NCBI GenBank assembly: GCA_015680685.1
Contig: MNCI01002765.1
Span: 1 to 64,000, forward strand
Reading direction: 5' to 3'
Length of the DNA stretch: 64,000 nt
Source of the DNA: Gnetum montanum
Taxonomy: Eukaryota > Plantae > Gnetophyta
Part shown: in pieces, positions 1,271-64,000 of the stretch
Numbering within the stretch: the stretch's first letter is position 1
Layout: each line of letters begins with the position of its first letter
Made by a program: the position numbers and the translations under genes
Notes under the pieces: generated by a model
What the model was told of the DNA's origin: nothing
Database searches by the model: none
What the model saw: the letters and a program-made list of their open reading frames with translations, nothing else

Positions 1271-1811
1271 CATAGCTGACAAAACTGTGACTCATCACTC
1301 ATGTTTTCCCTTGTTTCACTATTGATGCCTTAAACATTAAAAAAAATATTTACTTAATTTCTATTTAATTAAACTATGATGATTCTTCCTTGTCCAAGCA
1401 AGTCATAATTGTATAGAATGGTGTGGGGCCATCGAGGTTATGACTAAGAACCATTTTATTACATTCTATGTGTGGTGTTGCACATGACCCAACAGGGATT
1501 GTGGCACAAGCATTATGTCTATCCCCAGTATGGATTGTGATGCATGTGTATTTATCTTTTTTTCACTTCATTTAAGCATAAAATACATAAAAATTATAAA
1601 ATATATAATTAAAAATATTTTCTCTACCTCTCATTGTGGCAACATGGTCTATCACTTATATCATATATATTATAATATCATTTATACTTTTTGAAGATAA
1701 CAATATACATGAGTGTTCTTAACAATCTACTAAACATCATCTTTGAAGCTTAAAACCAAATTATACTACATTTTCTATGATAAATCCCATTGATCAAAAA
1801 CAACAAGACCC

Positions 1812-3620
1812 TGTAATGACTGAAAATGTCAATGGCTAGAATCACTTAGGGGTCCATGGTCATATAGCCTTAACCCTACATCCATATGAGAGCCTACTAG
1901 AAATAGAGGTAGGATGCCCAGAATGGTCTTGTTGATGGAACTGGGACTTACAGGGTTTACAATGAACAAATGCGAGGGGTTTGCATGGTGTTTGCAACAT
2001 CCAACATGCCTATAGTAGTGAGTGTAGTTAAGGCTTTTGGTGCAAAACAAGGATGCAAACACATGAATATGCACAAAAATGATGAAAAATGCAATTAGAA
2101 TGCTAAAATGCAATAGAAATTGCTAAAAATGTACAAGATGCAAGCGAGAGAGAAAGATGCACCACTCCAAATGGGGAGAGCATAGTTAACTGTAAGAAAA
2201 GAGAAGGTAAGGAGGTACACGATGTACAAACAAGCACAAAAGCTAGCATAGTCATAGTCTCAAGGTGTTTGGGCTACAAAAATTGATGTCTACCATGAAG
2301 TCTGAGCCTACCAAGTTGGCTTTCATGGTGTCCTACAAGCTATAGTGGTCTATGGGGTGCAACGGTGTTGTGATGATGTGCAACGGTGCCAAGTGCTATC
2401 TCAAAGTTCGCCAAAATGCTAAGTGCACTCAGGTGCCAAATGCCAAAATGTCGTGGAATGCAAGAGTTTCCAATTGAATGCTTGAAATTCCAACCCCTAG
2501 AATATAGAAACTTGGGTTATTTATAGGGCTAGGGTTAGCCCAAATTGCGAATTAGGCACCACATGGCAGAAGGGTAGTTGGGACTATGCTCTAATATAGT
2601 TGGGACTACGCTCACCCCAACTATGCTCTATGATGTAGCAAATGGTATTGAGTGGTTTCATTTCTCTGATGGAGTATGTGAAGCTAAGATACTATGACTA
2701 CACTACCTTCTTCATAAAGAAGAGTACAAATGTACCTGAGAAATGCAAAACATGCCAAAAAATGCAACTTTTTAAGACTACACTATGGGACTATGCTCTA
2801 GAGCATAGTCGCAATTTTTGGGGAAAGGGGGATGCAAAAATGACAAATGTTATTGCTAGAGAGGTGCTAGAGCTTATGTAAATGCCGATGCTAAGGTGTG
2901 AGAGCCTTTGGAGGCTATTCTTGCTATCTACACTAACTATGCTCTTGAGTGTAGTTTCAGACTTTGGCAAAATCTAGTTAAAAACTAGAAAAAACCAATA
3001 AAATATGGCTAAGTGTTGACTATGCTCTAGAGGAGGTTGACTACACTCATGAGGATAGCAAGCATAGGCTTAACACTTAGATAAAAATCTACAAAATCTA
3101 CCTTTTGGACAAACTACACTAACTATGCTCTAGAGCATAGTCCCAAAAGCAAGAGTGTAGTCTTGATAGTTAGAAAAATTCTATAGAAAAAATGTGTTTC
3201 CAAGCTAACTATGCTGACTACGCTCTAGATCGTAGTCCTAGTAGTGGTGTAGTTTAGGTACTTAGAAAAATTTTGGCAAAAACTGGACTTCCAAATTATC
3301 TACACGTTAACTACACTCTAGAGCATAGTCATGACAATTAGAAAAAATTTGCAAAAATTGATGTTTTGTGTTGACTATACTCTAGAGCATGGTCTTGGTA
3401 GTCAAGAGTGTAGTCTTTGCACTTAGAAAAATTTATAGCTTTATCACCATTTTGACACTTAGAAAAAATCCTACAAAACTAGTAGTTGTGTGTTGACTAT
3501 GCTGACTATGCTCTAGAGCGTAATCTCAACACTTAGAAAAATTTGGAAAAGTGCCATCATTTTGAAACTTAGCCAAATTTGTGGGTGGGATGCAGGAGCC
3601 CAAAATTTTATGGTGTTTCA
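1812..3620 (-). repeat. 3' LTR of the Tat/Ogre-like element
   Basis: Colinear with 9491-11298; many ACTATGCTCTAGAGCATAGT palindromes. Confidence 0.9.
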
Positions 3621-6200: not shown

Positions 6201-7116
6201 CTATAGTGACCTCCCCTCATTCAAGGTTGACCTTGACTATGTCATCATAAAAGGCTAGGAATGTTGAACCCAATTCCTGTGGTATAGGAGGCAAGATCAT
6301 TGCACGGATGGTGTTCTCATCTATAGGCATGGCCTCTGTGACAAGAATGGAGGCCAAAATCTTGGCCAATGCTTGGTGGTGGGTAGACAAAGTCATGACC
6401 AAGTCATACAAGCTTAGTGTTTTGTTCTTTTGATTGAGCATTTGTTGCACCTAGGTTAGTGCAACTACGAAGTTCTTGTGATCAACTGTTGTATTGGCCT
6501 TGACATCCTCCATGTGGCTTGAGATACTAATATCTTGTAGATGGGACTTGAGCTTGGGTTGCTTGGCCTATTTGGGGGTAGAGGCCTCATTGTTCTGTTG
6601 TGACTTGCTTGTTTTGGCCTTTACTTCAACCATCGGGTTTGTGATGTGCTCATTTGGCCTCTTGAATTGCCATTTGGTAGGCCTTCCTGGGTTACTAGTG
6701 GGGTCAGCCCTTGAAGGAGAAAAGACCAACACATTACCCACTATTGGGCTTCGGGTAGGAGAGGTACCAGTGGGTTGTGACACCCTAATGAAAAATAGCA
6801 GCTTTGCAGTTGTTGTTGTAGGGCTAGCTCATTGTGGCTCCTTAATGACGAATGGTTGCTTAGTGGTTGCTAGTGTAGCTTGCTAGTTTAATGTCTTAGC
6901 AAATAGGTTTTGTTAGTTTAATATCTTAGTAGATGAATTTTTCTAGTTTAATATCTTAGCAAATAATTGTTGTAGGACCTTGACCATGAAGGGTGTTGTG
7001 GGTGCCCGCAGTGATACTTTGACCATGAAGGGAGATCTCTTACATGTAGAGGCTGAGGGAATCCTTACCTTGCTGGGAGGCACTTGAATCACAAAAGGTT
7101 TTTGCACATGTTTATT

Positions 7117-8250: not shown

Positions 8251-9490
8251 TGATGATTTCAGAGGAGGTAGCTTTGAACCAATTGATCTCCTCTATCAAG
8301 ATTTGGATCAGGTAGAATACCTTATCCAAACTTGGGGATGTGCCAGCTAATTGGGCTAGGCTTATGTGGTTTTCACAGTGAAGTGCTAGATTGTTGGTTG
8401 CAGAGTATGCCAATTTAACGTCGTAGAAGACGAATGAAATTGTTGCATTGGCTAAGGGATGGGTGTGGTAACCGAGGTAGGCCACACATGCATTGGTTGG
8501 ATTGATACTAAGGGCACCAAGGAGATAGGTAGGATGTAGGATGCCTAAATCATTTGGAACTAGGAGGTGGCCCCATCATGAATGTAGGGTTTGGCGAATG
8601 CAACGGTTGCTTGCAAGGAAGGCTAAGTTGGCATGGTCACCATCTTGTAGAGGACGAGTGAACCAAACTAAGGAGGGGTAGTATTGGGGAGTGGTTGTTG
8701 GAAGATGATGTAGAGGAGGCTCTCACATTTGGAGTAGGCCTCGAACTCATCTTCCTCCTCCTATGAGACCTCCTTGTAGGTTGTCCCTACATCGTGCTCA
8801 TTTGCATCAATGAGTTGGGACAATAGTTGGTGGTAGGACTCCATGAGTGGGATTATATTAAACAAGGTAGGGTTATACTCTTATCCATCCTAATGAACTC
8901 ATTCATAGTCCTATTTTTCCTCTATGTCAAGGCTATCTATGGGTAATCCTACTTGGATTTTTGCACAAACAAAGTTGTACTATTCGTGGCTTAGCATGGC
9001 ACGCTTTAGGGGGATGATGGTGTCAAGTGTGTTAGACACTGATACAGAAGGTTGATCTAGATTCATGTTCATAGATCAAGCCATGAGAGTTGTTGTTTAC
9101 AAAAAAAAAATAGTTAACTCTAAAAACACAGAAAAATGGCTATGTTTTTTGGTGGCAAAAAATGGCTAAGTTTGGAATATGCAGAAAAATGACTAAGTGT
9201 GAAAATGAAAAAAAAATTGCTAAGTATGAAAACTATAGAAAATCAACTAAGTATAAAATTGCAAGAAAAATGGCTAGGTATGGAGACTACACTCCACACC
9301 AACTATGCTCTCTACACTCAGAGAACGAAGACCTAGAAAAAAGAGTGAAGAATAGTAAGACTTAGGTTGCTACGCGGAGTCTTAGGGAGACCAACAATAG
9401 GGACCAATCTACACTAACAAGTGTGTAGAGAGCATGCAAATACAACATAAATGAATGAAATGGCATGACCCTCCTTCTAGAACTAGAAAC

Positions 9491-11298
9491 TATAACGATC
9501 GAAAACATCGATGGTTGGAATCACCAAAGGGTTCGTGGTCATATAGCCTTTACCCCACATCTACATGAGGGCTTGTTGGAAATGAAGGTAGGATTCCTAG
9601 AATGGTCTTGTCGATCAAACTGGGGCTTACAAGTTGTTACAATGAACAAATGTGAGGGGTTTGCATGGTTTTTACAACATCCATGGTGCCTATGGGGGTG
9701 AGTGTAGTTAAGGTTTTTGGTGCAAAATGAGGGCACAAACACACAAGCATGTGCAAAAATGGTGAAAAATATGAGTAGAATGCTAAAACACAAGAGAAAA
9801 TGCTAAAAATGTGCAAGATGCAAGCAAGAAATAAAGTGACACCATCCCAAATGATGGAAGCATAGTTAACTACAAAGAAAGAGAAGGCGAGGAGGTACAT
9901 GGTGTACAAACAGGTGTAGAAGGTAATGTAGTCACAATCTCAAGGTGTCTGGGTTGTGAAAACTGACATCTACTATGAGGTCTAAGCCTACTAGGTTGGC
10001 TACCATACTGTCCTGCAAGCTATGGTGGTCTATGAGGTGCAATGGTGTTTTGGTGATGTGCAATGGTGCCAAGTGCTATCCCAAAGTTCACCAAAATGCC
10101 AAGTGTGCATGGGTGTCAAATGCCAAAATGCCAGTTGCATGCAAGAGTTGCCAACTAAATGCTTCAAATGCCAACACCTAGAATGCAGAACATTGGGGTA
10201 TTTATAAGGCTAGGGTTAGTCCAAATTGTAGATTAGGCACCACATGGTAGAGGCGTAGTTGGAACTACACTCTGGGGTAGTTGGGACTATGCTCACCCCA
10301 ACTATGCTCTGTGGTGTAACAAACGGTGTTGAGTGGTGTCATTTCTCTAATAGAGTTTGTGAAGCTAAGAGACTATGACTAAATTACCTTCTACATGAAG
10401 AAGACCACAAATGTACCTAAGAAATGCAAAACATCCAAAAATGAAACTTTTGGAGACTACATTCTGGGACTATGCTCTAGAGCATAGTTATAATTTTTGG
10501 GAAAAGGGGGATGCAAAAATGACAAATGCTATTGCTAGAGAGGTGCTAGAGCTAATGCAAATGCCAATGTTGAGGTGTGGGGGCCTTTAGAGGCTATTCT
10601 TACTATCTATGCTAACTACACTCTGGAGCATAGTCCCATACTTTGACAAAATCTAGTCAAAAACTAGCAAAAACTGACAAAATATGACTAAGGGTTGACT
10701 ATGCTCTAGAGGAGGTTGACTATGCTCCTGAGCATGGCAAGGGTATGCTTAACCCTTAGAAAAAAATCTACAAAATCTAGCTTCTAGAAGAACCACAGTA
10801 ACTAGACTCTAGAGCATAGTCCTGATAGTAAGAGAGCAGTCTTGATAGTTAGAAAAATTATACAAAAAAAATTTGTTTCCAAGCTGACTATGCTCTAGAG
10901 CATAGTCCTAGTAGTGGAGAGTGTAGTTTGGGTACTAGAAAAATTTTAGCAGAAACTGGACTTCCAAATTATCTACACTCTGACTATGCTCTAGAGCATA
11001 GTCCCAACAGTTAGAAAAAATTTGCAAAAACTAGTGTTATGTGCCGACTACTCTCTAGAGTGTAGTCTTGGCAGTGGAGAGTGTAGTTTCAACACTTAGA
11101 AAAAATCCTGCAAAATTGGTAGTTGTGTGTTGACTATGCTAACTATGCTCTGGAGCATAGTCTCAGTAGTGGGAGCATAGTCTCAGTAGTGGGAGCATAG
11201 TCTCAACACTTAGAAAAATTTGGGAAAAGTGCCATCATTCTGACACTTAGCCAAATTTGTGAGCGACAAGCAAGAGCCCAAAATTTTATGATGTTTCA
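9491..11298 (-). repeat. 5' LTR of the Tat/Ogre-like element
   Basis: Colinear with 1812-3620; both copies end AAATTTTATG(G/A)TGTTTCA. Confidence 0.9.
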
Positions 11299-19018: not shown

Positions 19019-19620
19019 TGATAAAGTTAATTTCTATTGTGATGTCATACAGTAGCAACAATGTTATATTACATGCTACATCATCATTCATGTGATGCCT
19101 TGGGATGCATGTAGTCCTTTAAATACTAGCACTTAGGTGCACTATCCATAGTTTTTCATTCCACCCTTAGTGAGATACTTGTAGTTTGTTTTCATAGCCT
19201 TAGTGATAGAGTGAATGCCTACAATATGATATTTACCAATTTTCTGATGTCTTTATTCAAGTGGATTGTACTTGAACATAGTTCATGATGGCAATAAAGA
19301 TTGAGATTGCTTTTCATCATTGTAGCATTCCCTTAGTTTCATTTTTTACTTAGCATAATCTTTACTATTTTCCTAGTTAATCATTTACATTCCAATCACT
19401 TTATTTTACATGTCATTAGTAAGCAATATGGATACAATTAGTTTTGAGTGCTATGTGTAGTTATCTAGTAACCCAGTAGTGGCGTTACTTGGTTTGCCTA
19501 GTAGTAATTCCACTTGGTAATCCCAACGATAACTACACAAGTCCAAAGTGTGAATGGTAGAGCAAAACCAAATGTCCATTACATTAGGCTAAGATAGGTT
19601 TATGTTTTCTTAGTTAAGTA
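19019..19620 (+). repeat. Partial 3' LTR (Athila-like)
   Basis: Starts TGAT after the PPT. Has TTTAAATA, AATAAA at about 19293, and the structured motifs shared with the other LTRs. Confidence 0.75.
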
Positions 19621-23919: not shown

Positions 23920-25481
23920 GGACTACAAGTAGCACTATCACATAATCTGGAGAGTGTGAGCCAATTTGAATAGCAGTCTCACATAATTCAAACCAAAAGA
24001 TAGTTAGACCTTCTGGAAGGCTAAAAATGCTTGAAAGGTTTTCCCACCAAAAGACATGATACCTTTTAGAAGTCTTCAACACATGGACTATGACATGCTA
24101 TGAGTGACACTATCTTGCAATCTCCTAAGGTAATGATTGTTATGAAAAAAATCTCCTAAGGTATAAAAGCCAAGATAAAAATTAACACCCAAGGCATAAT
24201 AATCTCTCAGGATACCATCACCTCTAGTGTAACTTAGTATTTAATTGGAAAACTTATGAATGATCATTAGATGATAGTTAAGTATGATAACTTGGAAACC
24301 TAACTATGACATTAGGAATCATAAAATTTTTCATGTTTAATGTTTGATAGAATATGTGGTTTTCTTTTATGATTTAATGTTAGATCTTCATTTAAACAGT
24401 ATGTTACATTGGGTTTGAATACTTATCTTACTGTAACTCAAACCATAATGTTATGTATTATGAAACTTGATTATCAAGTTTGTGAATAATGTAAGTTTAA
24501 TCCTTTAAGTTGTAGAACAAGCTTATGTTTTCTCATACTCTATTATATTCCATGGGAAAAAACATTAAGTTATTTTACTAAGGTATAATATAAAAGTTAA
24601 AACTCTAGTCTACTAGAAGGCACAAAACCTTCTAAAAGCTCGGTTCAAGTGAAGTGCGATAGGCTACAAGTAGCACTATCTCATAGTTTCATCTAGAAAT
24701 CATAATGATCATCAAGTAGATGAAAAATGTTTGTAATTTTGGCCTACATGAAGGCACAAAACCTTCTAGAAGCACAGTTGATAAAGAGTGCCATTGACTA
24801 CGAGTAGCATTGTCTTGCAGCTTCACCAAAACTCACAATAACAATCTGGTTGATTAAAAATGGTTGAAACTTTGGGCTACCAAAAGGAACAAAACCTTCT
24901 AAAAGCTCAATTTAGGCGCAGTGCAAGTGATTGCAGGTAGCACTATCTCACAATGTCATCCAAAAGTCATAATAACTAATAGGTAGATGGAAAATGGTTG
25001 TAATTTTGGCCTACTGAAAGGCACGAAACCTACAAGAATTCTGGTTCAGTTGGCATGCAAAAGGTTCCAAGTAGCATGGCTTTGCAGTTGCATCCAAAAG
25101 TCATAATAACCATCTGATAGATGAAATATGGTTGTAATTTTGGCCTATTTAAAGGCACAAAACCTACCAAAAGCCTAATTTAGGTGAAGTGCGAGAGGCT
25201 GTGAGTAGCACAACCTCATAGTTTAAATTGGAAGACATAATGACCAACTGGAAGATGAAAACTTGTTGTAATTTTAGCCTACTAAAAGGTGCAAAATCTT
25301 CTAGTAGCATATTTCAAGTGGAGTGCAAGTAACACTACCTCACAGTTTCAACCAAAAGTCACAATGACCATCTAGTAGATGAAAAATGGTTGAAATTTTG
25401 ACCTATTGGAAGGCATGAGACCTTCCAGAAGCTTAGTTCAAGTAGAGTGCAAGTGGCTAGAAGTAGCATTATCTTGTAGTC
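23920..25481. repeat. ~124-134 bp satellite-like tandem array, left part
   Basis: GAAAAATGGTTGTAATTTTGGCCTAC..AAGGCACAAAACC recurs at about 24722, 24857, 24990, 25122, 25256 and 25381, with more degenerate units to the left. Confidence 0.85.
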
Positions 25482-26481
25482 TATTATATCCCATCCAAAT
25501 ACATTAGGTATGGCCATATGCTTACGATTTATACATTACATGTGGAGTCCCAGTGGGTTGTCAAGGTTGAGTTAATTTAATATAAATGTATTTTCTATGT
25601 TATGAGGCTTTGTCTTTATGTTCCAGTTATGATGCCTTAGCATGCTTAACTAACGTGATTATGTACACTAGCCCTATTTGATGTGTTAGACAGGTGAGGT
25701 TGCTAGTAGGGGTGTTGGATTAGGGTACAAGAGCACCTATCTACTATTTCATTATGCTTTATGTGTGATTTCAGTATTTATGCATTTAAACTATAGCACT
25801 GTGTTGCATGATGTTTAGGTGTGATTTTGGCATGTGAATGTGTAGAGCATTTGATAAGGATTTCGTAGGTTCAAATGGATTTTAATTTGGAGTCCCAATG
25901 TGCTTGTTATGCACATTGGAAATGTAGGATATTAGTTGGGAAAGAAACGAAAGAAATAAACTTATGAAAAAAAAGAGTAGAAGTAAAAAGTAAAAATAAA
26001 AATAAAATGTTGCATGTGATGTGAAAAAAGGAAGCTACTTGTGTATATATTTCTTTTAACAAAACATATATGCTAAGAGAATACAATGAAAAAAAACATA
26101 GTTTATAATGTTTTTTTTTTTTACCAACGCTCTTTTTCTACCACCACCCATAAAAATTGGATTTTGTTCATTTCTTTCTATCTCTCAAAATAGAAAGTGA
26201 TATCACATTTATTCTCTTTCAATTTTCTTCTAATTCTCCTTTTTTTTCTAGAATTTTAAGCTTTGTAAATGATTTTTAATTGCTCTAAACCTTGATTTTG
26301 AATTGCTACAGTTACATCTACATGGGTGCAAAACTTATTTGGAGTGAAATGGAGTCCTACCGGATTTTTAAGGGTTTTTTCCTTATTTTGGCCTTTCTAC
26401 CCCAAAAATTTTAATTGGTGGGTTATCTTTACCTTTTTCTTATATTTTTGTGCTAGATTGGTATTTTAATTGGTGGGTTAT

Positions 26482-27535
26482 TGATGAGACGCGACTTACA
26501 CTAGGCCGCGATATCGCGTACGCGATATCGCGTCTTCTCCTGCGATATCGCATACGCGATATCGCGTCGCGCCGCCATATCTATAAATAAGAGGCGGCAC
26601 TCCCTTCATTTCCCAATCCTAGCTAGTGTAGCGAAGCTCTGGCAGATTGATCACTCCAGAGTTAGAATTTTTCCCCATGTGCCCGCAGTAGGAGTCCTAG
26701 AGTGAACGGCTCTTTATTCGAGCAGCTTGTAACCTGAACCCAAGTTGTGTACGGCAATAAAGACGAACTTGTTTGGATAAACCTTGCAGCACGTGGTTTC
26801 ATTTATTGCTTTATTTCCTGCTTTCCTAGTGCGTTCAAGTACGACTTGATTACGAGCGTCTACGGACGTGTACGGCTAGTCAAGGAATCGGCTGCTTGAC
26901 GCAATGCATGAGTACGACTCAATTACGAGCATTGGATGCTTGGTAACCCAGTAGCGTATTCCAGGATTCTGCGCTTGGTAACTCCCGGGTCTAATGTGTA
27001 CGGCTAGTTGAGGAATCGGCTGCTCATTGCTAGGCTAGAACGTGTGATAAGTACGACTTAGTTACGAGCACCCACGGGTGTGTACGGCTGGCTAAGGAAT
27101 CGGCTGCTTATCACACGTAGGCTAAATAGGTGCCTCAGTACGACCACTTCGAGCACTTGCGTTACGTGTGGCGATCCCAGTAACGATTAGCGTTTGGTAA
27201 GCTGCAGTTGCATAGTTCAGGGTGTGTCCGGTAAGTGGGAACGGATGCTGACGCTAGTTAACTTAGACTTAGACCTTAGTTAGAGATTAGTTTAGTTTCT
27301 CAACCCTTTTCTCCTGGTAGCATAGAAGATAAGTCGAAAATACCAAAAAAATCACATACCTCAGACTTGCTTAACCATATACCGTGACACTTACAAGCAA
27401 GCCTGGGAAAACAACGAACGATTAACCCCAAGTGTTTCTTATGGCATTAAGGCATTTAGTCTGCGAAGTTCGACCGGATCGCGCGTGTACGCTCGTTTCG
27501 TATGGTGGAGTGTAGGGGTACCTCGCCACTCATCA
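26482..27535 (+). mobile_element. Young solo LTR (1054 bp, Athila-like family) inserted in the Tekay 5' LTR
   Basis: TGATGAG...CTCATCA termini; perfect 5-bp TSD GTTAT (26477-26481, 27536-27540); TATA at 26581; AATAAA at 26756; CpG largely intact. Confidence 0.95.
26831..27251 (+). ncRNA. Four tandem copies of a covarying structured-RNA motif in the LTR U5 region (putative cis-acting RNA)
   Basis: Near-invariant loop strands ACGA / CGAG / UGUACGGC / GAAUCGGCU, separated by stems that differ in sequence between copies but keep pairing. Confidence 0.7.
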
Positions 27536-27725
27536 GTTATCTTTACCTATTTTCTATACATCATTGATTTTTAGTTATCATGCTTCCATTGTAGATTACT
27601 GGTGATCCTAGGCATCACCCTGCCCTAGCTAGGATAGGGTGTTACATTGTGGTTTCGAAGCTAGTTTAGTCCAATGTGGTATGAACGTCAAAGTACTCAT
27701 CCATTTGTGATTTCAGGTTACAAAT

Positions 27726-34860: not shown

Positions 34861-36235
34861 CAGTGTCATCTAGAAGTCATAATATGTATTGACAGATGAA
34901 AAATGGTTGTAATTTTGACCTATTGGAAGGCACGAAACCTACCAAAAGCCTAGTTTATGTGGAGTGCTAAAGGTTGCAAGTAGCATGGCCTTGCAAGTTC
35001 ACCCAAAAGTCAAAATAACCATCAGGAAGATGAAAATGGTTGTAATTTTGTCCTATTGGAAGGCATGAAACCTACTAGAAGTCATAATGAATGACTAGAA
35101 GATGAAAATTTGTATTAATTTTGGCCTACCAAAATGTGCAAAACCTTCTAGTAGTATGGTTCAGGTGGAGTGCAAGTAGCACTGCCTTATAGTTTCAACC
35201 AGAAATCATAATGACCATCCATTATATGAAAACTAGTTGAAATTTTAGCTTACTAGAAGGTGTGAAACCTTTCAATAGCATGTTTTAGGTGGAGTGCGAG
35301 TAGCATTGCCTCACAGTTTCAACCAAAAGTCATAATGACCATCTGATAAATTAAAAATGGTTAAAATTTTGGTCTATCAGAAGGTACAAAACTTTTCAAA
35401 AGCTTGATTCAAGTGGAGTGTGAGTGGTTGCAAGTAACAATATCTTGTAGTGTCATCCAAAACTCATAATAAATATTTGGTAAATAAAAAGTGGTTATAA
35501 TTTTGGCCTACTTAAAGGCACAAAACTTATTGGAAGCCTAGTCTAGCTGGAGTGCAAGAGGCTAAAAATAGCATAGCCTCATAGTTACATCTAGAGGTCA
35601 TAATAACCATCTAATAGATGAAAAATGGTTGTAATTTTGGCCTATCAAAAAGCATGAAACCTATTGGAAGCTTGGTTTAGTTAAAGTGCAAGAGGCTACA
35701 GGTAGCATAGCTTTGTAGTTTAATCCAAAAGACATAATGACCAGTGGAAAGAAGAAAAATTATTGTAACTTTGGCCTACTTGAAGGCACGAAACCTTCCA
35801 GTTGCATTTTTTAAGTGAAGTGCGTGTAGCATTGCCTCGCAGTTTCAATCAAATGTCACAATGACCATCCCATAGATTAGAAATGGTTGAAATTTTGGCC
35901 TACCAAAAGACACGAAACCTTCCAATAACACATTTCAGGTGGCATGCAAGTAACACTACCTCACAGCTTCAATCGGAAGTCATAGTGACCATCCAACAGA
36001 TTAAAAATGGTTGAAATTTTGGCCTACCAAAAGATAGGAAATCTTGGGAAGCTTAGTTCAAGTGGCGTGCAAGTGGTTGCAAGTAGCACTATTTCAATGT
36101 CATCCGAAAGTCATAATAAATATCCAACAAATGAAAAATGGTTGTCATTTTGGCCTACCAAAAGGCACGAAACCTATCAAAAGCTTGGTTTAGGTCTAGT
36201 GCAAAAGGGTGCAAGTAGCATGACCTCACAGTATC
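34861..36235. repeat. ~124-134 bp satellite-like tandem array, right part
   Basis: About 11 further units of the same monomer, resuming in register after the Tekay insertion. Confidence 0.9.
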
Positions 36236-36239
36236 TCAC

Positions 36240-36665
36240 ATTTAAATTTTGAAAATTAATAAATTATTTTAGGTGCAATCATATGCAAGTTGCAATTATT
36301 GGTTGACAACATGAATATGCATGCAAGCCTAGTTCAAGTCCAATGCGAGAGGGTGCAAGTAGCACGGCCTCATAGTATCTTGCATTTAAATTTTGAAAAT
36401 TAATAAATTATTTTAGGTGCGATCATATGCGAGTTGCAATCATTGGTTGACAACACAAATATGCATGCATATCAACATGTTAGATTATGAAAATTAATAA
36501 ACTATTTTAGGTGCAAGCATATGTGAGTCGCAATCATTGGTGGACAACATGAATATGCATGCATATCAACATGTTAAATTCTGAAAATTAATAAATTATT
36601 TTAGGTGCAAGCATATGTGAGTCACAATTATTGGTTGACAACATGAATATGCATGCATGTCAACA
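36240..36665. repeat. Four ~90-bp tandem units
   Basis: GAAAATTAATAAATTATTTTAGGTGC..TTGGTTGACAACATGAATATGCATGCA occurs four times. Confidence 0.85.
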
Positions 36666-40434: not shown

Positions 40435-41958
40435 CTAGACCCTGGGGAGGATCTGGGGCGGTGTTGCAGGATTGTCACCCTTCTCCACGGCTTCCAAATA
40501 CTTAACAATGGGGTGGCAATAGTCATCCGAAAACCGGTTCCTTGTATCACACGGGTAGCGATCAATAACATCATCCCAAACATTATTATTACTGGCCGCC
40601 TTATCGGGGTGGCGGGATTGCTGGTGCAGCACCTCCCAAACAGCCGAATTGCACTTGAACCCGGAACCCAGAGCAATCTGCCACACTCTGTCTCCGCGCC
40701 GGAGTCGCCGCTTGGCGTCCAAGTAGGCCAATACGTACCAGATGCCAGAAACGGAGGCATTCCCAAATCGATGCAGCGCCATGCGCGACGCCTCTGCATC
40801 ATATTCCGTCAACCCAAGACTCTTGGCCACGCCATTGATCACGGCGCGCCCTCCCGGATGAATGCAGAAGTGCTCAAACGCCGACCGAAAATCCGGAACA
40901 TACGGCGCTGGCGCGGAGCCGGCCACGGTTTCCCGGGGCAGACGACGACGGAGACGCGGGAGCAGCACGTTGTAGTAAACGTAACGGAGCTGCTCTCGGA
41001 GCGGCAGAACTTTGGGTCCGAGCTCCGTCAGGCTCCGGCGGACGGCTTCGCCGGCGACGCCGGTGAGGCAGGGCTGGAGAGATATTCCGTAGACGCCGGC
41101 GTCGTCCTCCTTCGTAATGACGCATCCGTGCGCTGCGTCGTCGGCGGCGTAGGTGGTGCGCAAGCGGAGCCGGGCGCGCCGGGACTCGTCGGCGCGGTTG
41201 GAGAGCAGAACGGCGTTTCCGCCGACCCGGAAGATGGCCTGCGTGAGCATCATGCTGCGGTCGCGCCCGGCGTAGTTGGCGTTGACGGAGGAGCTGTCGG
41301 TGCCGACGAGGAGGGCGTACGATTCGGGGCTGAGCGATAGCAGGTCGCTGGCCATGGATACGGCGATGACGTTCGCGGCGCAGCCCATGCCGGAGAGATT
41401 GAAGGCCTTCACGTCCTCGCGGAACCCGTAGCGGTTTTCGAGCCACGCCGTCCACGACGGCGTCGGGCTGAAACTGCCGACGGTGACGATGAGGATGTCG
41501 ATTTGCGCCGGTTCGACGCCGGTCTTCGCGAACAGATCGCCCAGGACGGCCTGGAAGGCTTCCTCGGCTTCTTCGCGGCATTCCTCCATGGTGGCGTGGC
41601 GGTGCTCGCCCGACAAAACGAATCTGGGGACGTAGGTTTCGTCGCCCAGGCCGGAACGCAGGAAAATGCGCCACTGCAGATTCAGGCGTTGGGCCGTGAC
41701 GGGTTGCGCGTTGCATGTGAAGTAGAGGTAGGACTCCGAGTTCATTTTGCGATCGTCCGGTGGGCGGTAGCAACTGTAATCTACCAAGTAACAGCACCGG
41801 CTCCGGCTCCGGCGCAACAGCGCTTTCAGAGACAAGGCCACCATCACAGCGCAGACCACGGCCACCGGCACGAACACTTTCGCGGACACGTCCATTTTGG
41901 GTTTGGAAGGCAGGCACGCATCCACCCTTGGCCGTGGAACTGCGATGGGGTTTGGCAT
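40435..41958 (-). CDS. KCS: 3-ketoacyl-CoA synthase (FAE1/KCS family very-long-chain fatty acid condensing enzyme), intronless
   Basis: 507-aa ORF with an N-terminal TM helix and the motifs YLVDYSCYRP, RSGLGDETY, FNLSGMGC (catalytic Cys), FEHFCIHPGGRAVI, EASRMALHRFGN and GDRVWQIALGSGFKCNSAVW. Confidence 0.96.
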   Translation of the reverse strand: MPNPIAVPRPRVDACLPSKPKMDVSAKVFVPVAVVCAVMVALSLKALLRRSRSRCCYLVDYSCYRPPDDRKMNSESYLYFTCNAQPVTAQRLNLQWRIFLRSGLGDETYVPRFVLSGEHRHATMEECREEAEEAFQAVLGDLFAKTGVEPAQIDILIVTVGSFSPTPSWTAWLENRYGFREDVKAFNLSGMGCAANVIAVSMASDLLSLSPESYALLVGTDSSSVNANYAGRDRSMMLTQAIFRVGGNAVLLSNRADESRRARLRLRTTYAADDAAHGCVITKEDDAGVYGISLQPCLTGVAGEAVRRSLTELGPKVLPLREQLRYVYYNVLLPRLRRRLPRETVAGSAPAPYVPDFRSAFEHFCIHPGGRAVINGVAKSLGLTEYDAEASRMALHRFGNASVSGIWYVLAYLDAKRRLRRGDRVWQIALGSGFKCNSAVWEVLHQQSRHPDKAASNNNVWDDVIDRYPCDTRNRFSDDYCHPIVKYLEAVEKGDNPATPPQILPRV

Positions 41959-42383
41959 GTTTAAATGCTAATGGTGCCGGTGCTCATACTTCATTACGTC
42001 TGTCTGGACCTTAAAGACATGTCAAACAAAACTGTCTAATAGCAATAAATCCTTGACACTGTTGGGCGGTGCTGGAGGACATACTGTATCTATCTTACAA
42101 CTGTTTCATAATGATTTAGTGTAAGAATTAACTGTTAGTTTTGAGAGAATTTTTTAGCATGAGTTTCATTGCAGCAATCAAAGTTAAATTTGAATTTGAA
42201 TTTAAAAATATACTTATACTACAATCATTTCGAATTTCAACACGTTATGTAAGTCGGGGGTGTCGGACCCAAAAAATAAATTTAATTAATAGAGAAAAAA
42301 GAAAATAGTACAAGAAATTAGGAAACGCTCACCTCAAAAGAGGAGAAACTACAAGAAATTAGGAAAAACGGGAGAGAAAAAGT

Positions 42384-45300
42384 TCAAGAGCTCAACTGCA
42401 GCATTAGCTGTTGAACAATGTCTCCTTGAATAGACAAGGAGAGAATATTAGTAGGAGAATTACGTTGAAAAACCACATTACAACAAAATTTCCGGATAGC
42501 ATGGAGAATAAGGGGACGAAGGCGACACCAGATATAAATCAAAGAGCCTTGAAGATTCGAAGTGTCACCAAAAAGAACCTCATCTAAGCTTGGTCGAAAA
42601 CCCTGTAAAAACCTGCCACATCAAATCCAAGAGCTATGAGCAAGGGGACAAGAAAAAAAACAGTGAGTAAAAGCATCTTCCCTATGACAAATAGGACATC
42701 GTAGGTCAAGAACCCCCAGATGAGAGCGCCGAACACCCATAGGAAAACCTTGGTGAATCAGATACCATAGAAAATGTTGAATCTTTGAAGAAGTAGGAGT
42801 AGTCCAAATAGTCTGAATACGTTGCTTCCAAACCTGCACATTAAGATTAACTTGCCAAAGATGGTTGAATCTAGGCCAAATATTAGTAGTGGAATTAATA
42901 AGAGAGTAAATAATCTTAGAATGATAGGGAAAAACTTGATGACCAGAAATCCAAGAAAGATCTAAAAAACCACCAAGGGAGTCTTGAATAACAACACTTT
43001 TGTTCAAGCTATCCAAAATTGTACAAAAGCTAGACTTTTGAGCAGCATTAATACCATAAATAAGGTGACATTCAGTCCAAGTAATCCAACGATTATGAAT
43101 GCGAAGAGAGGAGAGGGAGGAGATGCCAAGCTTATCCCAAGTGCTACATAGACGAGGACGCTTAATGGCCCAAGGTTCATTGTGAATGGGAATCCACCAA
43201 GGAGAAAGCTTATCAAGTGTAGAGGAAGAAATAGTGATAGTGTTAAAGTTCCAAAACTGATTGATATAACACCATGCCTTCCAAATGTGTTTGATGACAA
43301 CAGAACCAGAAATGGTAATACCAGTGGGAAAAAGAATCCAATTAAAGAAATGAGTATTATTCCAATAATTACTACCTTTGGGCTTCCCAAGCTGTATGCA
43401 TTTAAGGAAAGGAAGCTTCCAAGGTTCAGAGCCAGATAAGCATTTGGCCATCCATTTGGCGCATAACACAATGCCCTGTTTGTAGCAATTAATGAGGCCC
43501 AAACCGCCGTCCTCTTTATGAGTAGTACAAACATTCCAAGCAACCCGACAAAATCCTTTCTTAGTATGGTTGCTATTCCAAAGAAAGTGTTTGACTAGTT
43601 GATCAATGCGACGATAAGCAGAGATGCTAGGAGCCCAACAAGAAGAGTAATACACATGGGTAGCTTGGAGAATATGCTTGCAGACAATAAATTTACCAGC
43701 CATAGATAGCTTCTTTTCCTTCCACTTAATAAGCTTTTGTTCAAGTTTCGTCATAGTGACATCCCATAATGTTTTGGATGATCCGCCAAAAGAAAAGGAA
43801 ATGCCAAGAAGCTTAAAAACTTGATCCTTTCCTAAAAATTGCCAAGACTTAGACAATGCATAGGCTTGAACCTCTTTGTTGCAAAAGATAGAAGATTTGA
43901 ACCAATTAATCTGAGAGCCAGAGAGTCTACAATAATGATCAATGCGATAAAAAAGACGATCAGCAATAAGAGCATCATTTTTTATCATAAAGAATGAGTC
44001 ATTAGCAAAATGCATATTCAATAAGGAAGGAACATTATGATCAATGAAAATACCTTGAAGCAAATTTTGTTCCTTATCCTTATGAATAGCATGACACAAA
44101 AAGTCCGCAGCAAGAATGAAGAGGTAAGGAGCAAGAGGACAACCTTGCCTAACAGGGCGCTCAAGCTTGAAGCAATTAGTTAAGCCAGTGTTAGTAGCCA
44201 CGAGGGCATTGGCGTTGGCAAAAAGAGTCTCCACCATTTTAATAACATTAATGTGAAAACCATATTTATGAAGGCAAGCAATAACAAATTTCCACTCAAT
44301 TTTGTCATACGCTTTAGCATAATCAAGCTTAAGAAAAGCAATGTTTTGATTGGAGTCCTCGGCCCATTGCATACCTTCCCAAGCCGCAACAACATTATCA
44401 AGAATATACCTACCCTTAACAAAGCCTGTTTGCATTGGGGTAATGATCTGAGGGATAATTAGCTTCAGTCTATTAGCAAGACATTTAGCCAAAATCTTGT
44501 AAACAGAGTTAAGGAGAGTGATAGGACGCCAGTTACCAATCAGTGAAGGATCACCTGTTTTAGGAATAAGACGGATGACACCTCTATTTAACTCAGGACC
44601 AAGAGACTGTTGATTTATGGCTTCTGCAAAAACATAAGAGAGGTCTGAACCCACAATATCCCAATGATTCTTAAAAAACTCAATGGGGATGCCATCAAAA
44701 CCAGGGGCTTTATCATTGGCCAGGCTAAACACAGCAGCCTTGATTTCAGAAAGAGAGATATCTTGAGCGAGAAGATGATTGTGACTGCTATGGACAATAC
44801 TAGGTAGGTGATCTGAGTTAGTAGCAAACTCATCCTGATCAAACCCATTGGAGACAAAGAGGCATTGAAAATGTTGTTCAAGAAAACCATTTATAACATG
44901 AGGATCGGAGGTAAGTTGGCCATTCACTTCCAAACGTTCTATAGTAGGGAAAGTACCTCTACCCTTTAAAAATTTGAAGAACTCTTTATAGGGTTCTCCC
45001 TCAATTTTTAACCAGTTGAGACGACTCTTGATGAGAGCACTTCTAGCAGAGTACATATCCCATTTTTGTTTAACTGAGCGAACATAAGTTAGCCGTTGTT
45101 GAAGAGCAACATTAAAAGGGTCATGTTGAAGTGCAGAGTTAAGTTGTTGCAATTCAGAACTAACATTCGCCTCAATAGACCTACGTTTCTTAGCATATTG
45201 CTTGCCCAACCAGCGAGCAAAGTTGCGAATACGAGAAGTGGCACGCAACCACCAGTCAATCCAACCTAAATTGCCTGATGGCCTTCTCTCTGCATTCCAA

Positions 45301-46115
45301 AGAGATGTCAAAAGACCTTTACCAGAAGGAGTAAGAAATAAAGAGGCATTCATGCGAAAAAGTTGGCGATGTTGAGCTAAAGATTTAGAACCAAAGGTCA
45401 AAGTGAGAGAAATTGGAAAGTGGTCTGAGAGGGTAGCATCAAGGTGGACCTTAACATGACCATCACAAAACCATGAGGAATAACTAGAGAAATAAAATCG
45501 ATCAAGTCGCTCACAAATGCGATCAGCACCAATCCTAAGGTTGGACCAAGTAAACCAACCTTCACGATTCACGTTAGAGCTGGCAGCATCAGAGAGACAA
45601 AAGTGCTCCTTAACATCACTCCAACTAGAAAGCTCGAGGCTGGTAAGTTGAGAAGAGGCTCCACCAACTTTATCATAAGGATGTTCGATCATATTAAAAT
45701 CACCTCCAAAGAGCCAAGGAATGTTAGGCAGACTGTGAAGGAGAGACTGCCAAACACTGGCCCTAGTGGTAGGAGTAGTGGGAGCATAAATATTACAAAT
45801 GCCGAAAGGACCAGAAGTGCCTTGAAGAGTAGCCCAAACAAAAGAGGTGTGACTACCATGAGAGAGAATTTTGTTAGACCAGGATTTATTGATAATAAGG
45901 GCTGCACCACCTTGACCAGTAATATGATTTGTGGAAAAGACAATAGAGTCAGGTAGGATGCTATTGCCTGCAATAATTGCATCCAGAGTAGAAATTTTAA
46001 CCTCTTGCAGGAGAAGGAAGTCAGGAAGCAAAGGTCGAGAGCGAATAAAAGCACCGACCACCCGTGTTCGGAGGTGATTGGAGAGCCCCCGAACATTCCA
46101 AGAATAGACTAACAT
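42384..46115 (-). CDS. LINE ORF2 (APE endonuclease, reverse transcriptase, zf-RVT); probably inactivated
   Basis: SWNVRGL, LQEVK, GGDFN, RLDRF, SDHFP; KAPGFDG, NWRPITLLN, KLDYAKAYD, RQGCPLAP, FAND; CPIC..HCFFSC. Open 46115-42621, and the frame continues past that TGA to 42384. Confidence 0.93.
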
Positions 46116-47158
46116 CCAGAGAAGGGGGAGGAGGCCCCCGCCCTAGTTGCAGAGTTAACAATGTCTAAAGAAATCATTTCCTGGTTGTGATCAATGGCAG
46201 TAAAGGGATTGTGGGTGAGTAAGAGAGTTTGAGTGGATTGGTTGGACTGAAGTGTAACGTCGTTGGTAAAAGGCATACCCCGACGTTTCCTACTGAGGGG
46301 AACTATTTGAAATCCGTCATCATCAATAGGAGGGTTGTTAGAAGCCGTAAAAACGTATGGGTGTTTTCCCTTAGCTAATGAAGAAGCATGAGGAGGTGGC
46401 TTTTTGGTAACCTTACTTTGAGACCTAGGTGTGGGAGGAGCCTTGTTGCTAATAGAGGAAACCTTAGGATCAGTAGGGGAGGATTGTTGTGATCGTGCTT
46501 GCGCTGCCTTCTTTCGTAACATAAAGGGGCATGAGACAAACATATGACCCTCTTGGTGGCAGTAGTGACAAGAGTTGGGAAGGTTGTAATAGACCACCTT
46601 TTGCATATAGTTAATACCACCTGCACGCAAAATAAGTTCTCGTTTAAGAGAGTCTAAGTCCACTTCAATCATATATCGAGTCCTGCGAAGGCCACTAGGT
46701 GTACCTAAGGATTCAGTGTGTTTGATTAATCCAAGGCGAGACACAATATCCCTTTCAACTCTTTCGAAAATCAAGGGGAGATTCGGTAACTCTACAAAAC
46801 AAGGGACTTTCCGAAATTCAGGAGAAGTTGGGTTGAGAGAAGGAGTCCACTTGCGAATAATCAATAAAGCATGACGATGGTGAAAGACACTAATGCTAAG
46901 AGCTTCAGAGACCATCTCTGAGTTAATAAACTCAACAAGTAGAAAAGAATTAGATAAATATCGAACATGTGAAGCTATCAAACCACGATCTTTCCAAACA
47001 GAGTTGACATGATGCAAAAAGCTAGAAGAGCAGGGCAGGTAGCCTAAAATTTGTACAAAGACATACCTGCTAGAAATGTCGTGGGTGATAGATTCAAACA
47101 AATCATTAGGAAGCTTGTAGAATGGCGCGGAAGAAGTGGAGCCACCATCTGGCGACAT
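46109..47158 (-). CDS. LINE ORF1 (DUF4283-like RRM plus CCHC zinc knuckle)
   Basis: LLIIRKWTP, VPCFVELPNLP and QKVVYYNLPNSCHYCHQEGHMFVSC. First ATG is at 47158; the ORF track starts at an upstream TTG. Confidence 0.9.
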   Translation of the reverse strand: MSPDGGSTSSAPFYKLPNDLFESITHDISSRYVFVQILGYLPCSSSFLHHVNSVWKDRGLIASHVRYLSNSFLLVEFINSEMVSEALSISVFHHRHALLIIRKWTPSLNPTSPEFRKVPCFVELPNLPLIFERVERDIVSRLGLIKHTESLGTPSGLRRTRYMIEVDLDSLKRELILRAGGINYMQKVVYYNLPNSCHYCHQEGHMFVSCPFMLRKKAAQARSQQSSPTDPKVSSISNKAPPTPRSQSKVTKKPPPHASSLAKGKHPYVFTASNNPPIDDDGFQIVPLSRKRRGMPFTNDVTLQSNQSTQTLLLTHNPFTAIDHNQEMISLDIVNSATRAGASSPFSGC

Positions 47159-47825
47159 GGGAACTGAAGGAGCTGATCTAAAACAGGTCAGAGAGCCTTC
47201 TCTTCTACGATCACAAAACAGAACAGGCAGCAAGATCTGCCTGAGATCTGCAAAGGTGCCTTGATCCGATCCGATTGCAAAGGTGTCTTGATCCGATCCG
47301 ATCTCACAGGCAGCAAGATCTGCTCGAGATCTGCTAGGACGCCTCCGTTCCTCGCTCTACCTTCGTTTGCCCAATCACAATGTGAATTTGTATCAGCAAT
47401 GAAAACAATTAGAAATGGCGACCAAATGCTGATGCCGGTGCTGATAACGCGGTAGAATCCACACTACGATCTGACGCTAACTTTGCATGTGCAGCAACAA
47501 TAACTCCCGCCTGGCCTGCTACCAGCCCTGGACGTGGGATCCTCGCGACTGGTCTGCGGTTGCATCTGCAATGCCTGCAACAAGGATCGTGGCGCCAAGA
47601 AATGACTGCAGCGCGCTTTCGCAACTGCCTACGACAAGACGTTTTTGCTCTCGGGCCTCTGCAATCAATATTGTGGCCTGTATAGCACAAGTGATATTGT
47701 GACCTGTATAGCACAAGTGATAGTCTGTATCCAAGCCAACACGTTATGTAAGTCAAAGTGACATGACTCTGTGTAAATGTACGTACGTCATGAACATCAT
47801 CGTTTACCATGCATCCACCAGTCTG

Positions 47826-51110: not shown

Positions 51111-51985
51111 TAATGAACAGTGAATACCCCTATGCTCAACTATAAGAATCACTAAGCATTCACATGTGATTTGGTTGAATTATATGGACCTTTTGTATTC
51201 TGATACACCAGCCTCTAGGAAGTGAACGTGCCCTAATAGTCATTTGTTGTCTTCCCAATTACACTTGTGATATGCAAAGGTATGGTTAAGTGTAATCAAG
51301 GCATATGATTTTATTATTTTAATGTTTTATGTTTTGAGTGATTAAAATAAAGGATGAAAGGAATGAAGTAATTTAATTGCTAATTTAATCTAATTAACTA
51401 ACCAATGTCTAACTAATCCTAACATAAGCATTCAATCCCACTTTTCATACACATCTTGAACACGTATAATGCTATTGGGTTACCATATGTTAAGCATTAC
51501 TGGGATTACCAAGTGTCATGCAAATGCTCAAAGTAGTCATACTTATGTACTTAACTAATTACTATTTGATCTAGCTTAATTTAGCTCGATTACTTAAAAG
51601 CATTAAATAACATTGCATGAAACATTAAATGCATGAAGAAAATATTTAATCTAGCCAAAGTGCTACAAGGTTTATCAGAAAGCTCATTTTTATTATCACA
51701 CATACTACTGTGCTTAGGTACAATAGTTCTTGAATAAATATCCATACACTCAATGACTCTTGTTATGGGCACTTGGAAAAATTATTCTAGCTCTAGGGAA
51801 GAAAAAATGCAAGAGCTTTTCTACACTATGACAAAAGATTACTCTAAACTATACGTCCAAGAACTATATTTATAGGCTAGCACACATCCCATGATATTAG
51901 ATATTTGACATTGCTTCGTAATTCCCAATATTAGGTATTCGATATCAAGCTTCGATATCAGAGCCAAACAAAATAAACTTCATCA
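51111..51985 (-). mobile_element. 3' LTR of a minus-strand Athila-like element
   Basis: Minus strand: PPT TCAGTCATGGGGGTA (51986-52000), start TGATGAAG, end ..GTTCATTA; homologous to 52062-52918. Confidence 0.85.
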
Positions 51986-52061
51986 TACCCCCATGACTGA
52001 ATGAAAACTCATCCTTGAGTGAAAAAATGGAGGAACAAGTCCCTTACAAAATATTGGGAAG

Positions 52062-62033: not shown

Positions 62034-62038
62034 GGAAG

Positions 62039-63436: not shown

Positions 63437-64000
63437 TGATGAGTCATGAATTGTTGGCTGTGATATCGCACCCACAATATTGAGTAGATGATATTGTAGC
63501 CTAGACGTGATATCACGTATGCGATATTGCAGCCTATCTCCTCATCTATAAATAAGAGGCAGGAAGATTTGGAAATTAGTCTTTTTGAGTTTTAAGTTTT
63601 GTAANGATTTTTTATCAGTTTTTTCCTTTCAACCCTTTCTCCCAGGGCATGCCCGTAGTGTGATGCTTGTATTTGTACGGAATCCTTATTTGAGTGTGAT
63701 GTACTTGGACATGCACATGACCAACAATAAAGATTGAGATTACTTCATCATTGCAACATCCACTTAGCTTAATTATTTAATTGTTATTATTATTTATTGC
63801 TTTCTTAGTTAATATCTTTCTACCCTTATCTCCTAGTAATGCGAAATGAGTATGACTTAATCACGAGCATTTAAGTGTGACTACTTGGTAACCCAGTAGC
63901 GTACCTAGGCCATGCGCTTGGTAATCCCAGTGGTAGTCATGCATGAGGTCCAAGATATGTATGGATGATCAAGGAAGGGATGCTCATCGTACTTAGGCTA
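63437..64000 (+). mobile_element. 5' part of another LTR related to the 26482 family; cut by the window edge
   Basis: Starts TGATGAG; (G/C)GATATCGC palindromes; CTATAAATAAGAGGC; AATAAA at about 63726; structured motif at 63841-63990. Confidence 0.85.

Follow-up and report, generated by a model that had tools for sequence, protein, structure and literature searches.

Tandem two-module hairpins in the U5 region of a Gnetum montanum solo LTR, an apparently undescribed structured RNA element and candidate protein-docking array

The 64,000-nt stretch of Gnetum montanum DNA analyzed here (contig MNCI01002765.1, positions 1 to 64,000; referred to as the window) contains an array of four tandem hairpins at 26831–27251, which appears to be a real structured RNA element that has not been described before. 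The kind of element to which it belongs, a cis-acting leader signal of an LTR retroelement, is already known. By analogy with other retroelements, the array may best be explained as a multivalent protein-docking site on the 5′ leader of the genomic RNA, most likely for Gag-mediated packaging, and we give this reading a probability of about 40%. Most of the DNA in many plant genomes consists of LTR retrotransposons, and the array makes the question of how a plant Ty3/gypsy element marks its own RNA directly testable.

The four copies were found where a preliminary description, made from the sequence alone, had placed them, and all of them can be parsed into one architecture, P1-[CG A]-P2-[CG A]-P3..P3′-[G NN CG GN]-P2′-[G NN(N) CG GN]-P1′. 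The proposal that the two internal loops are versions of one repeated module was borne out, with 5′-CG A-3′ opposite 5′-G N2-3 CG G N-3′, while their depiction as open loops was not, because each contains a 2-bp CG/CG helix, next to which the A faces G-N2-3 and a G-N bulge is formed. Hairpin 1 (26831–26902, + strand) has two modules, an 8-bp P2 and a cUACGg tetraloop at 26861–26864. Hairpin 2 (26908–27027, +) also has two modules and an 8-bp P2, and its long apex contains a further, symmetric module. Hairpin 3 (27041–27117, +) combines two modules and an 8-bp P2 with a long P1 and a cCACGg tetraloop at 27073–27076, and hairpin 4 (27135–27251, +) has a 6-bp P2, a 5-bp P3, an 8-nt 3′ bulge, and a diverged symmetric apex. 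The P2 arms, which agree with those first given, are 26845–26852/26877–26884, 26918–26925/27005–27012, 27057–27064/27089–27096, and 27144–27149/27233–27238 in hairpins 1–4, respectively. Each P2 arm pairs better with its own partner (6–7 Watson–Crick pairs) than with that of another copy (4–5), in all six cross pairs. The P3 of copy 4 had to be revised from a helix of 6–7 bp, because a constrained fold made 5 bp followed by the 8-nt 3′ bulge more likely, and because the original register is broken by a family variant at 27157, which accounts for 42%–48% of the depth in three runs. A search pattern for the two-module hairpin, derived from these same four copies, matched four times on the + strand of the window, never on the − strand, and in 0/2000 dinucleotide shuffles of the LTR.

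The data showed that the stems differ between copies and still pair, while the loops are nearly invariant, as had been suggested from the sequence. Among the helix positions of the four copies, 93 of 94 are paired (80 Watson–Crick, 13 G-U, 0 A-C, and 1 other), the 13 G-U pairs occupying only five independent columns, and invariant columns make up 17/20 of the module as compared to 15/36 of the stems in copies 1–4. In a MAFFT alignment of copies 1–3 and the copy at 63844, which was not fitted to the structure, 96.9% of 96 cells were paired and 10/24 pairs changed on both sides; the paired or the two-sided value was reached in 0/500 shuffles, although the rows are four related paralogues, whose kinship alone can beat shuffles. 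Controls with slid partners gave 23%–40% pairing, and the number of further pair types in the four-row alignment was not above shuffles (120/500). A covariance model built from four rows recovered copy 4, which had been left out of it, with 38.6 bits, and the copies at 51423, 52493, and 61608 with 26–39 bits, along with two weak extra matches. In the model-fitted alignment 93.2% of 249 cells were paired (21/24 pairs), which is not used as main evidence, because this alignment is fitted to the structure and two of its 11 rows (26704 and 24169) are weak. The covariation analysis is based on nine copies in the window and on per-position variant tables.

The two-sided pair changes and the count of 13 G-U against 0 A-C pairs support the earlier view that a sense-strand RNA structure is under constraint. 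The five older copies in the window, scored over slightly shorter helices, contained 61 Watson–Crick, 20 G-U, 11 A-C, and 6 other pairs, and this is the composition that strand-blind decay following insertion would be expected to give. Hairpins 1 and 3 are capped on the sense strand by UACG and CACG, which are both of the YNMG type; UUCG and CACG are treated as members of this tetraloop motif in the available part of PMC2346598. As RNA, the + strand folded 6.6–9.1 kcal/mol better than the − strand in each of the four copies, while with DNA parameters the strands differed by at most 2.2 kcal/mol.

These observations bear on an explanation at the DNA level, or a neutral one, in which a tandemly duplicated quasi-palindrome is kept paired by template switching and the "loops" are conserved transcription-factor sites. 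Quasi-palindrome correction can mimic compensatory change, the U3 of the solo LTR contains true DNA palindromes, and a good fold is obtained for the − strand of copy 3 as well, with a z-score of −3.15. However, such correction would erase rather than keep the asymmetric loops, and neither the excess of G-U over A-C pairs nor the sense-strand location of the YNMG-type caps fits it. Moreover, the conserved bases are split between two strands, with apices ranging from 4 to more than 60 nt in between, an arrangement that is sensible only after folding. Hence, we regard this explanation as highly improbable.

When copies were folded alone, the z-scores were −2.37 for copy 1, −0.43 for copy 2, −4.30 for the + strand of copy 3, and +0.74 for copy 4, and the whole array folded no better than shuffles (z −0.49). 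In the context of the whole leader, ViennaRNA gave P2 probabilities of 0.87–0.97 for copies 1 and 3 (0.95–0.97 for copy 3), 0.00–0.21 for copy 2, and 0.0 for copy 4. The named structure of copy 2 is the minimum free energy (MFE) structure in isolation, with a mean pair probability of 0.78, and the named fold of copy 4 lies 1.9 kcal/mol above the MFE. Nearest-neighbor energies leave out non-canonical loop structure and bound protein, an omission that may excuse these low values but lends no weight to the folds.

The apical module of hairpin 2 (26939–26990, +), which the preliminary description had missed along with the nested position of the solo LTR and its single-hairpin relatives, is twofold symmetric, as both of its strands read Y-U-UGG-UAA(U)C-CCA-G. 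In the predicted fold, two UGG/CCA helices with GU bulges enclose a UAAC/UAAC-type internal loop. Both apical strands were found, partly decayed, in all seven long-apex copies, and RNAalifold gave seven consensus pairs for the inner half of the module, two of which change on both sides. The symmetric fold is the MFE structure of the copy at 63870–63945, and the copy at 19426, although the most diverged of all, still has the module. In hairpins 1 and 3 a tetraloop takes the place of the symmetric apex while both lower modules are retained, which suggests that the two-module hairpin is apparently a unit by itself.

The array is located in a solo LTR of 1054 bp (TGATGAG...CTCATCA; 26482–27535, +), which was delimited by its terminal inverted repeat and by a 5-bp target-site duplication, GTTAT, at 26477–26481 and 27536–27540. 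This LTR interrupts the 5′ LTR (25484–27646, +) of an old Ty3/gypsy host element unrelated to the solo-LTR family. The other LTR of the host element, which starts at 32067, represents the empty site at the insertion point, and the two host LTRs are 83.6% identical over 982 bp. The observed/expected CpG ratio is 1.2 in the solo LTR as compared to 0.08–0.26 in the host LTRs, which indicates that the solo LTR is a young insertion. As the hairpins sit in a solo LTR nested in another LTR, this copy makes no genomic RNA; it is a passive copy, and any function belongs to the parent element. The family is abundant, because 75,807 and 56,585 contigs from two DNA runs map onto the solo LTR, and at least half of the family's words are present in 14 of the 24 listed runs.

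Five older, diverged LTRs in the window have one hairpin apiece as compared to four in the solo LTR. A decayed full-length relative (52062–62034, +), flanked by a GGAAG target duplication, has LTRs at 52062–52918 and 61159–62034, in which a covariance-model search located single hairpins at 52493–52617 and 61608–61732 (+). Its two LTRs are identical at 751/851 positions, and the solo LTR matches its 5′ LTR at 566/783. The third LTR, which begins at 63448 and is cut by the window end, contains a hairpin-2-like copy at 63844–63988 (+), and, being truncated, could hold more than one hairpin. A decayed single hairpin at 51423–51548 on the − strand (35.5 bits) belongs to a related LTR near 51400–51990, and the most diverged one, at 19426–19580 (+), to a related LTR near 19020–19600. 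The latter keeps the symmetric apex above a perfect 12-bp stem; it scored 54.8 bits in a sequence model that included it and 15.8 bits (E 0.058) in a covariance model that did not. A further related LTR, at 1–193 on the − strand, is 86.5% identical and truncated before the hairpins. Since each of the five older copies shows one hairpin, four hairpins are the exception in this window. The hairpin-4 type was found in four of the five older relatives. Should the one-to-four difference have arisen by amplification within the youngest lineage, subfamilies may be competing for Gag or a host factor.

The decayed relative has the order gag-PR-RT-RH-INT, a single RNase H, and about 1.9 kb of non-coding sequence between integrase and 3′ LTR; RVT_1, the one RNase H, and integrase are Pfam matches found in that order in one frame, and the protease was assigned by eye without a Pfam match. 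The site after 52918, now decayed, resembles a tRNA-Asp primer site, the window being without a tRNA gene for comparison. The family fits the Athila-like Ty3/gypsy elements as described in the available text of PMC6317226. It shares with the Athila clade, which belongs to the OTA non-chromoviruses, the Ty3/gypsy domain order, the single RNase H, long non-coding regions, a 5-bp target duplication, and possibly a non-Met primer site. The RT of the decayed relative is 44%–52% identical to its best database matches, which are unlabelled angiosperm RTs. A CCHC knuckle was not found in its gag frame, even with one mismatch allowed. Ahead of the Gag core, this frame contains a 40-residue stretch with eight arginines, which is weak evidence, because the same density is attained in another reading frame of the gag region.

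Variation among family contigs was compared with the structure over copies 3 and 4, where 31/217 positions were variable at 6% or more in the contigs of four runs. Among the 14 variable positions in core helices, seven leave a G-U or A-U pair in place and seven break the pairing. The latter seven comprise three CpG G>A changes at 1%–11%, two helix-end pairs, and positions 27093 and 27079, which are without a listed partner change; the variant at 27093 reaches 19%–23% in three runs and 69% in the fourth. The breaks at 27093 and 27079 may be caused by easier cross-mapping of the conserved 3′ arms of paralogues than of their 5′ arms. Another family variant, at 27073, converts the CACG tetraloop to UACG (6%–20% in three runs, 67% in the fourth). 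None of the 25 unpaired module positions in copies 3 and 4 has a listed variant at this level, which is weakly suggestive of their invariance in the family, as no more than two to three variants were expected by a hand count and read mapping favors conserved bases.

RNA reads allowed us to place the array in relation to the transcript. A TATA box at 26582–26588 (+) marks the promoter predicted from the sequence. An AATAAA at 26756, conserved in six of six aligned LTRs, precedes a poly(A) site at about 26781 (26756–26781, +), which was identified from RNA read ends and forms the R/U5 border of the polyadenylated pool, as 197 and 396 reads pass into a poly(A) tail at 26781 in X23 and X24, two RNA runs from a single study. 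The RNA depth peaks at about 1000 just upstream of 26781 and drops to 20–320 over the hairpins, mostly in one direction. Transcription over the array is in the sense direction, with a depth of 212–270 as compared to 26–38 by mate direction at 27022–27129 in X23. Because only 223/4357 and 209/3531 of the RNA reads are at least 99% like the solo LTR, these data describe the family and not this locus. As the family RNA is polyadenylated at about 26781, the array (26831–27251) lies in the U5 of the polyadenylated pool. Hence, the original assignment of the array to the 5′ leader of genomic RNA stands with respect to its U5 position and fails for this solo-LTR copy. For the barley BARE element, the available part of PMC3735527 describes the packaged RNA as a separate, non-polyadenylated pool, which means that the U5 border may differ for the replicating RNA.

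The same reads are relevant to the suggestion that the repeats are a new self-cleaving ribozyme, which in a retrozyme-like manner would make circular or unit-length RNA. The invariant loop bases on covarying stems would suit such an activity. However, if the RNA were severed between R and the primer-binding site, strong-stop DNA synthesis would be destroyed and normal reverse transcription blocked. In addition, transcripts of the family are already polyadenylated before the array is reached, and the two RNA runs, whose libraries are 3′-biased, list no accumulation of molecule starts or ends across the array. Eight tandem catalytic sites would also be redundant. The suggestion is disfavored on these grounds, and we consider it very unlikely. 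An equally slight chance is given to the broader proposal that the unit represents a new class of small self-cleaving/self-ligating ribozyme, with which an autonomous plant Ty3/gypsy family processes a separate non-polyadenylated pool into a retrozyme-like circular replication intermediate.

Comparison with known plant ribozymes gives a similar picture. Retrozymes (PMC4918200, PMC6765202) and minimal twister-sister-like ribozymes (PMC11620745), as far as the available parts of these papers describe them, resemble the array in having a conserved structured RNA in a plant LTR and small internal loops between two stems. Each retrozyme LTR carries a ribozyme, and two stems with a single internal loop suffice for the minimal twister-sister-like ribozymes. 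On the other hand, a retrozyme is presented in the same part of PMC6765202 as a non-coding element of 1–1.5 kb with LTRs of about 350 bp and a 4-bp target duplication, while here the LTR has 1 kb, the duplication has 5 bp, the poly(A) site is used, and the relative at 52062–62034 carries gag-pol. The twister-sister definition in the available text of PMC11620745 includes a 5+6-nt L1 and cleavage at a conserved CA, and the module loops are devoid of a CA step; the sole GCUCA[AU] string belongs to the P1 arm of copy 2, which is paired. The array also lacks a hammerhead core, a three-way junction with CUGANGA and GAAA, since CUGANGA is absent from both strands of the solo LTR. The hairpin loop B strings are likewise absent from both strands, and the two loops differ from those of the hairpin ribozyme in being copies of one module. 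These results agree with the initial impression that the array is not a recognizable hammerhead, hairpin, or other listed ribozyme.

The position of the array in the leader also raises the question of translation. The predicted leader contains eight AUGs in short frames of 4–24 codons ahead of the LTR end, so that plain scanning looks poor, and the hairpins could be part of an internal entry site or a shunt, or a scanning repressor that routes the RNA from ribosomes to particles. We consider such control of translation or RNA fate unlikely. A 4-codon upstream ORF leaves about 140 nt between its end and hairpin 1, and just three of six aligned LTRs have its AUG, while the multiplied identical modules fit avidity better than one folded entry site. 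A role in the initiation of reverse transcription, in RNA dimerization, or in the suppression of the 5′ poly(A) site is distinctly unlikely as well. It is favored by the location of U5 between R and the primer site and, for dimerization, by the interrupted palindrome GGUAACC in the apical strands, which could pair between two RNAs much as Ty1 dimerizes via 5′UTR palindromes in the available account (PMC6844567). Nonetheless, about 285 nt separate hairpin 4 from the LTR end, and the palindromic apex is missing in two of the four copies. Because U5 is presumably transcribed behind both poly(A) sites, it could not by itself distinguish them.

Docking of a protein, which we prefer, would account for both the multiplication of the modules and their location. 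In full-length RNA, U5 is expected at the 5′ end and nowhere else, and the two identical modules of each hairpin, spaced by roughly one turn of the helix, would face the same way, which would suit an oligomeric protein. Avidity would rise with the increase from two modules to eight, and the divergence of the stems would favor folding within each copy. In other retroelements basic peptides bind grooves widened by bulges, as in Tat-TAR and Rev-RRE. The element's own Gag would then bind the array and select that RNA for packaging. Gag is proposed as the likeliest ligand by analogy with Ty1, whose 5′UTR holds dimerization palindromes and a preferred Gag-binding site according to the available part of PMC6844567. 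As in a packaging signal, the array lies in 5′-unique RNA, downstream of 26781 and upstream of the LTR end in the polyadenylated pool, and has a conserved sense-strand secondary structure, with weak thermodynamic support for copies 2 and 4. A point against packaging by Gag is that retroviral packaging signals usually reach downstream of the primer site.

The main rival to Gag packaging is export, in which the paired modules and the symmetric apex, like a CTE or RTE, recruit a host factor for export or RNA stability to the unspliced genomic RNA; we consider this rather doubtful. The CTE and RTE sit near the 3′ ends of their genomes, the CTE loop AAGACA is absent from both strands of the solo LTR, and the symmetric apex is missing from copies 1 and 3. 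In its favor, the retroviral CTE is described in the available part of PMC4330393 as a twofold-symmetric stem–loop, each of whose two internal loops binds one Tap-p15, and the apex here is also twofold symmetric. CaMV RNA is likewise exported through a structured 5′ leader according to the consulted portion of a 2025 review, in which the RNA export of plant LTR retrotransposons is said not to have been studied directly (PMC12786077). The type D retrovirus CTE (PMC4330393) and the mouse IAP RTE and MusD MTE (PMC12786077), in these same partial texts, resemble the array in being long hairpins with repeated conserved internal loops and variable stems in unspliced retroelement RNA. Apart from the AAGACA loop, the array differs from them in its 5′ U5 location and its plant host, and the twofold symmetry of the CTE is matched by the apical module only, as the two lower modules are direct and not twofold.

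Packaging leaders of retroviruses are a further near system, consisting of structured cis-acting RNA in the 5′ leader. The Ty1 5′ dimerization and Gag-binding region (PAL1-PAL2 and the 5′ pseudoknot; PMC6844567, available part) is similar as a structured cis-acting leader RNA with palindromic strands and, in our case, a plausible Gag site. The likeness seen is one of layout rather than of sequence; here tandem long hairpins with two identical modules each are located wholly inside U5, in a plant Ty3/gypsy rather than a yeast Ty1/copia element. The tandem repeats in the 5′UTRs of Drosophila ZAM and Idefix are also repeated units in a non-coding Ty3/gypsy leader, but in the partial sources available they are described as DNA-level insulators or protein sites, while here the stems covary and the strand bias is that of RNA. 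The strand layout of the module does not fit sarcin-ricin/loop E, kink-turn, 11-nt tetraloop-receptor, or T-loop motifs. A CaMV-type shunt was set aside as well, because of the distance of the short ORF from the hairpins and its lack of conservation.

Database searches were consistent with the claim that the array is without a known Rfam family. Rfam 15 gave no matches in the window at the gathering threshold, and none of the 12 weak matches over the LTR at E ≤ 10 overlapped 26831–27251. Exact-pattern scans of mostly prokaryotic collections, which are silent on other plants, yielded matches at chance level and no convincing homologue. JGI metagenome contigs gave one match, which was bacterial, intergenic, and without the 5′ arm (12.9 bits, E 0.065), and GTDB genomes gave four matches against about eight expected, with P2 paired at 5, 2, 2, and 3 of 8 positions. 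IMG/VR viral contigs gave no match to the hairpin patterns in one scan and one with P2 at 5/8 in another; six matched the apical pattern, four of them sharing their spacer length and downstream bases, and none folds as the symmetric module. A search of viral contigs for RT confirmed 0/18 candidates. In the full-text literature, largely outside subscription journals, no U5 structure of this sort was found described for Athila or other plant LTRs.

The array adds two RNA modules that have no Rfam match. Interest in it is tempered by the fact that retroviruses, Ty1, and mouse elements are already well known to have structured signals in their leaders. The hairpin is a compact unit of about 70 nt with built-in controls, as its loops can be mutated, its stems compensated, and natural versions with one and with four copies compared.

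The window as a whole is repeat-rich plant DNA, in which a 3-ketoacyl-CoA synthase gene, an L1-type LINE, and several Ty3/gypsy elements were observed. A poorly sampled non-flowering plant is the probable host judging by the 3-ketoacyl-CoA synthase, whose five best matches are 43%–56% identical and comprise two gymnosperm records.

In the long-type hairpins of the family, such as copy 4 of the array in the solo LTR, P3 is separated from the apical stem by an unpaired 3′ bulge of 7–10 nt. The sequences of this bulge, located at 27214–27221 and with counterparts near 19555, 51460, 52575, 61690, and 63945, are alike, and in copy 2 the sequence resembling it is paired. The bulge could pair with a UUGG strand of the apex, either as a pseudoknot or as a dimer contact. 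On the minus strand at 6657–6698, the sequence model matched weakly with its apical portion (11.3 bits, E 0.0096); this is possibly an additional remnant. Another LTR-like pair (1802–3431 and 9481–11184), which is 77–86% alike, 7.68 kb apart and contains short internal repeats, yielded no hairpin of the solo LTR family when the window was searched with the sequence model and the covariance model.

The reads of X23, an RNA run mapped on the solo LTR, come mostly from other family copies, and 138 of them join unrelated upstream sequence to LTR sequence at position 27026 (agreement 0.99). This joint could reflect a variant copy without hairpins 1 and 2, or alternatively, a chimeric or spliced transcript.

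The R region of the solo LTR contains, upstream of AATAAA, a look-alike of the internal-loop module in reversed order (26700–26723), in which G-NN-CG-GN precedes CG-A with a spacing of about 8 nt. Its sequence is conserved at matching places in five related LTRs, and the base 3′ of CG-G shows C>A variation in the family, as it does in the true modules. The outer stem is paired at just two to four of its four positions, and the look-alike did not fold more stably than shuffles. A four-codon upstream ORF is also located in R (26677–26691), with its AUG found in three of six aligned LTRs.

Palindromic GCGATATCGC units are clustered in U3 of the solo LTR (26506–26570) and also at 90–170. They make up a near-perfect DNA inverted repeat with the TATA box downstream; 38–45 nt of it are missing from many family copies, and fold-back joints were observed there in RNA reads. 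The palindromes are likely transcription-factor sites.

On either side of the older Ty3/gypsy element hosting the solo LTR lies an array of tandem repeats (24023–25540 and 34894–36650), with diverged units of 124/134 bp, and the element seems to have inserted into one such array. An L1-type LINE on the minus strand (42621–47356) is probably a recent insertion, because its two frames, encoding a 415-aa DUF4283 protein and a 1173-aa endonuclease-RT-zf-RVT protein, are both uninterrupted. It lies directly upstream of a 3-ketoacyl-CoA synthase (FAE1 family) gene, whose intronless minus-strand frame (40435–41967) is rich in GC and CpG, is overlapped by long open frames on both strands, and shows just 43–56% identity to its best matches.
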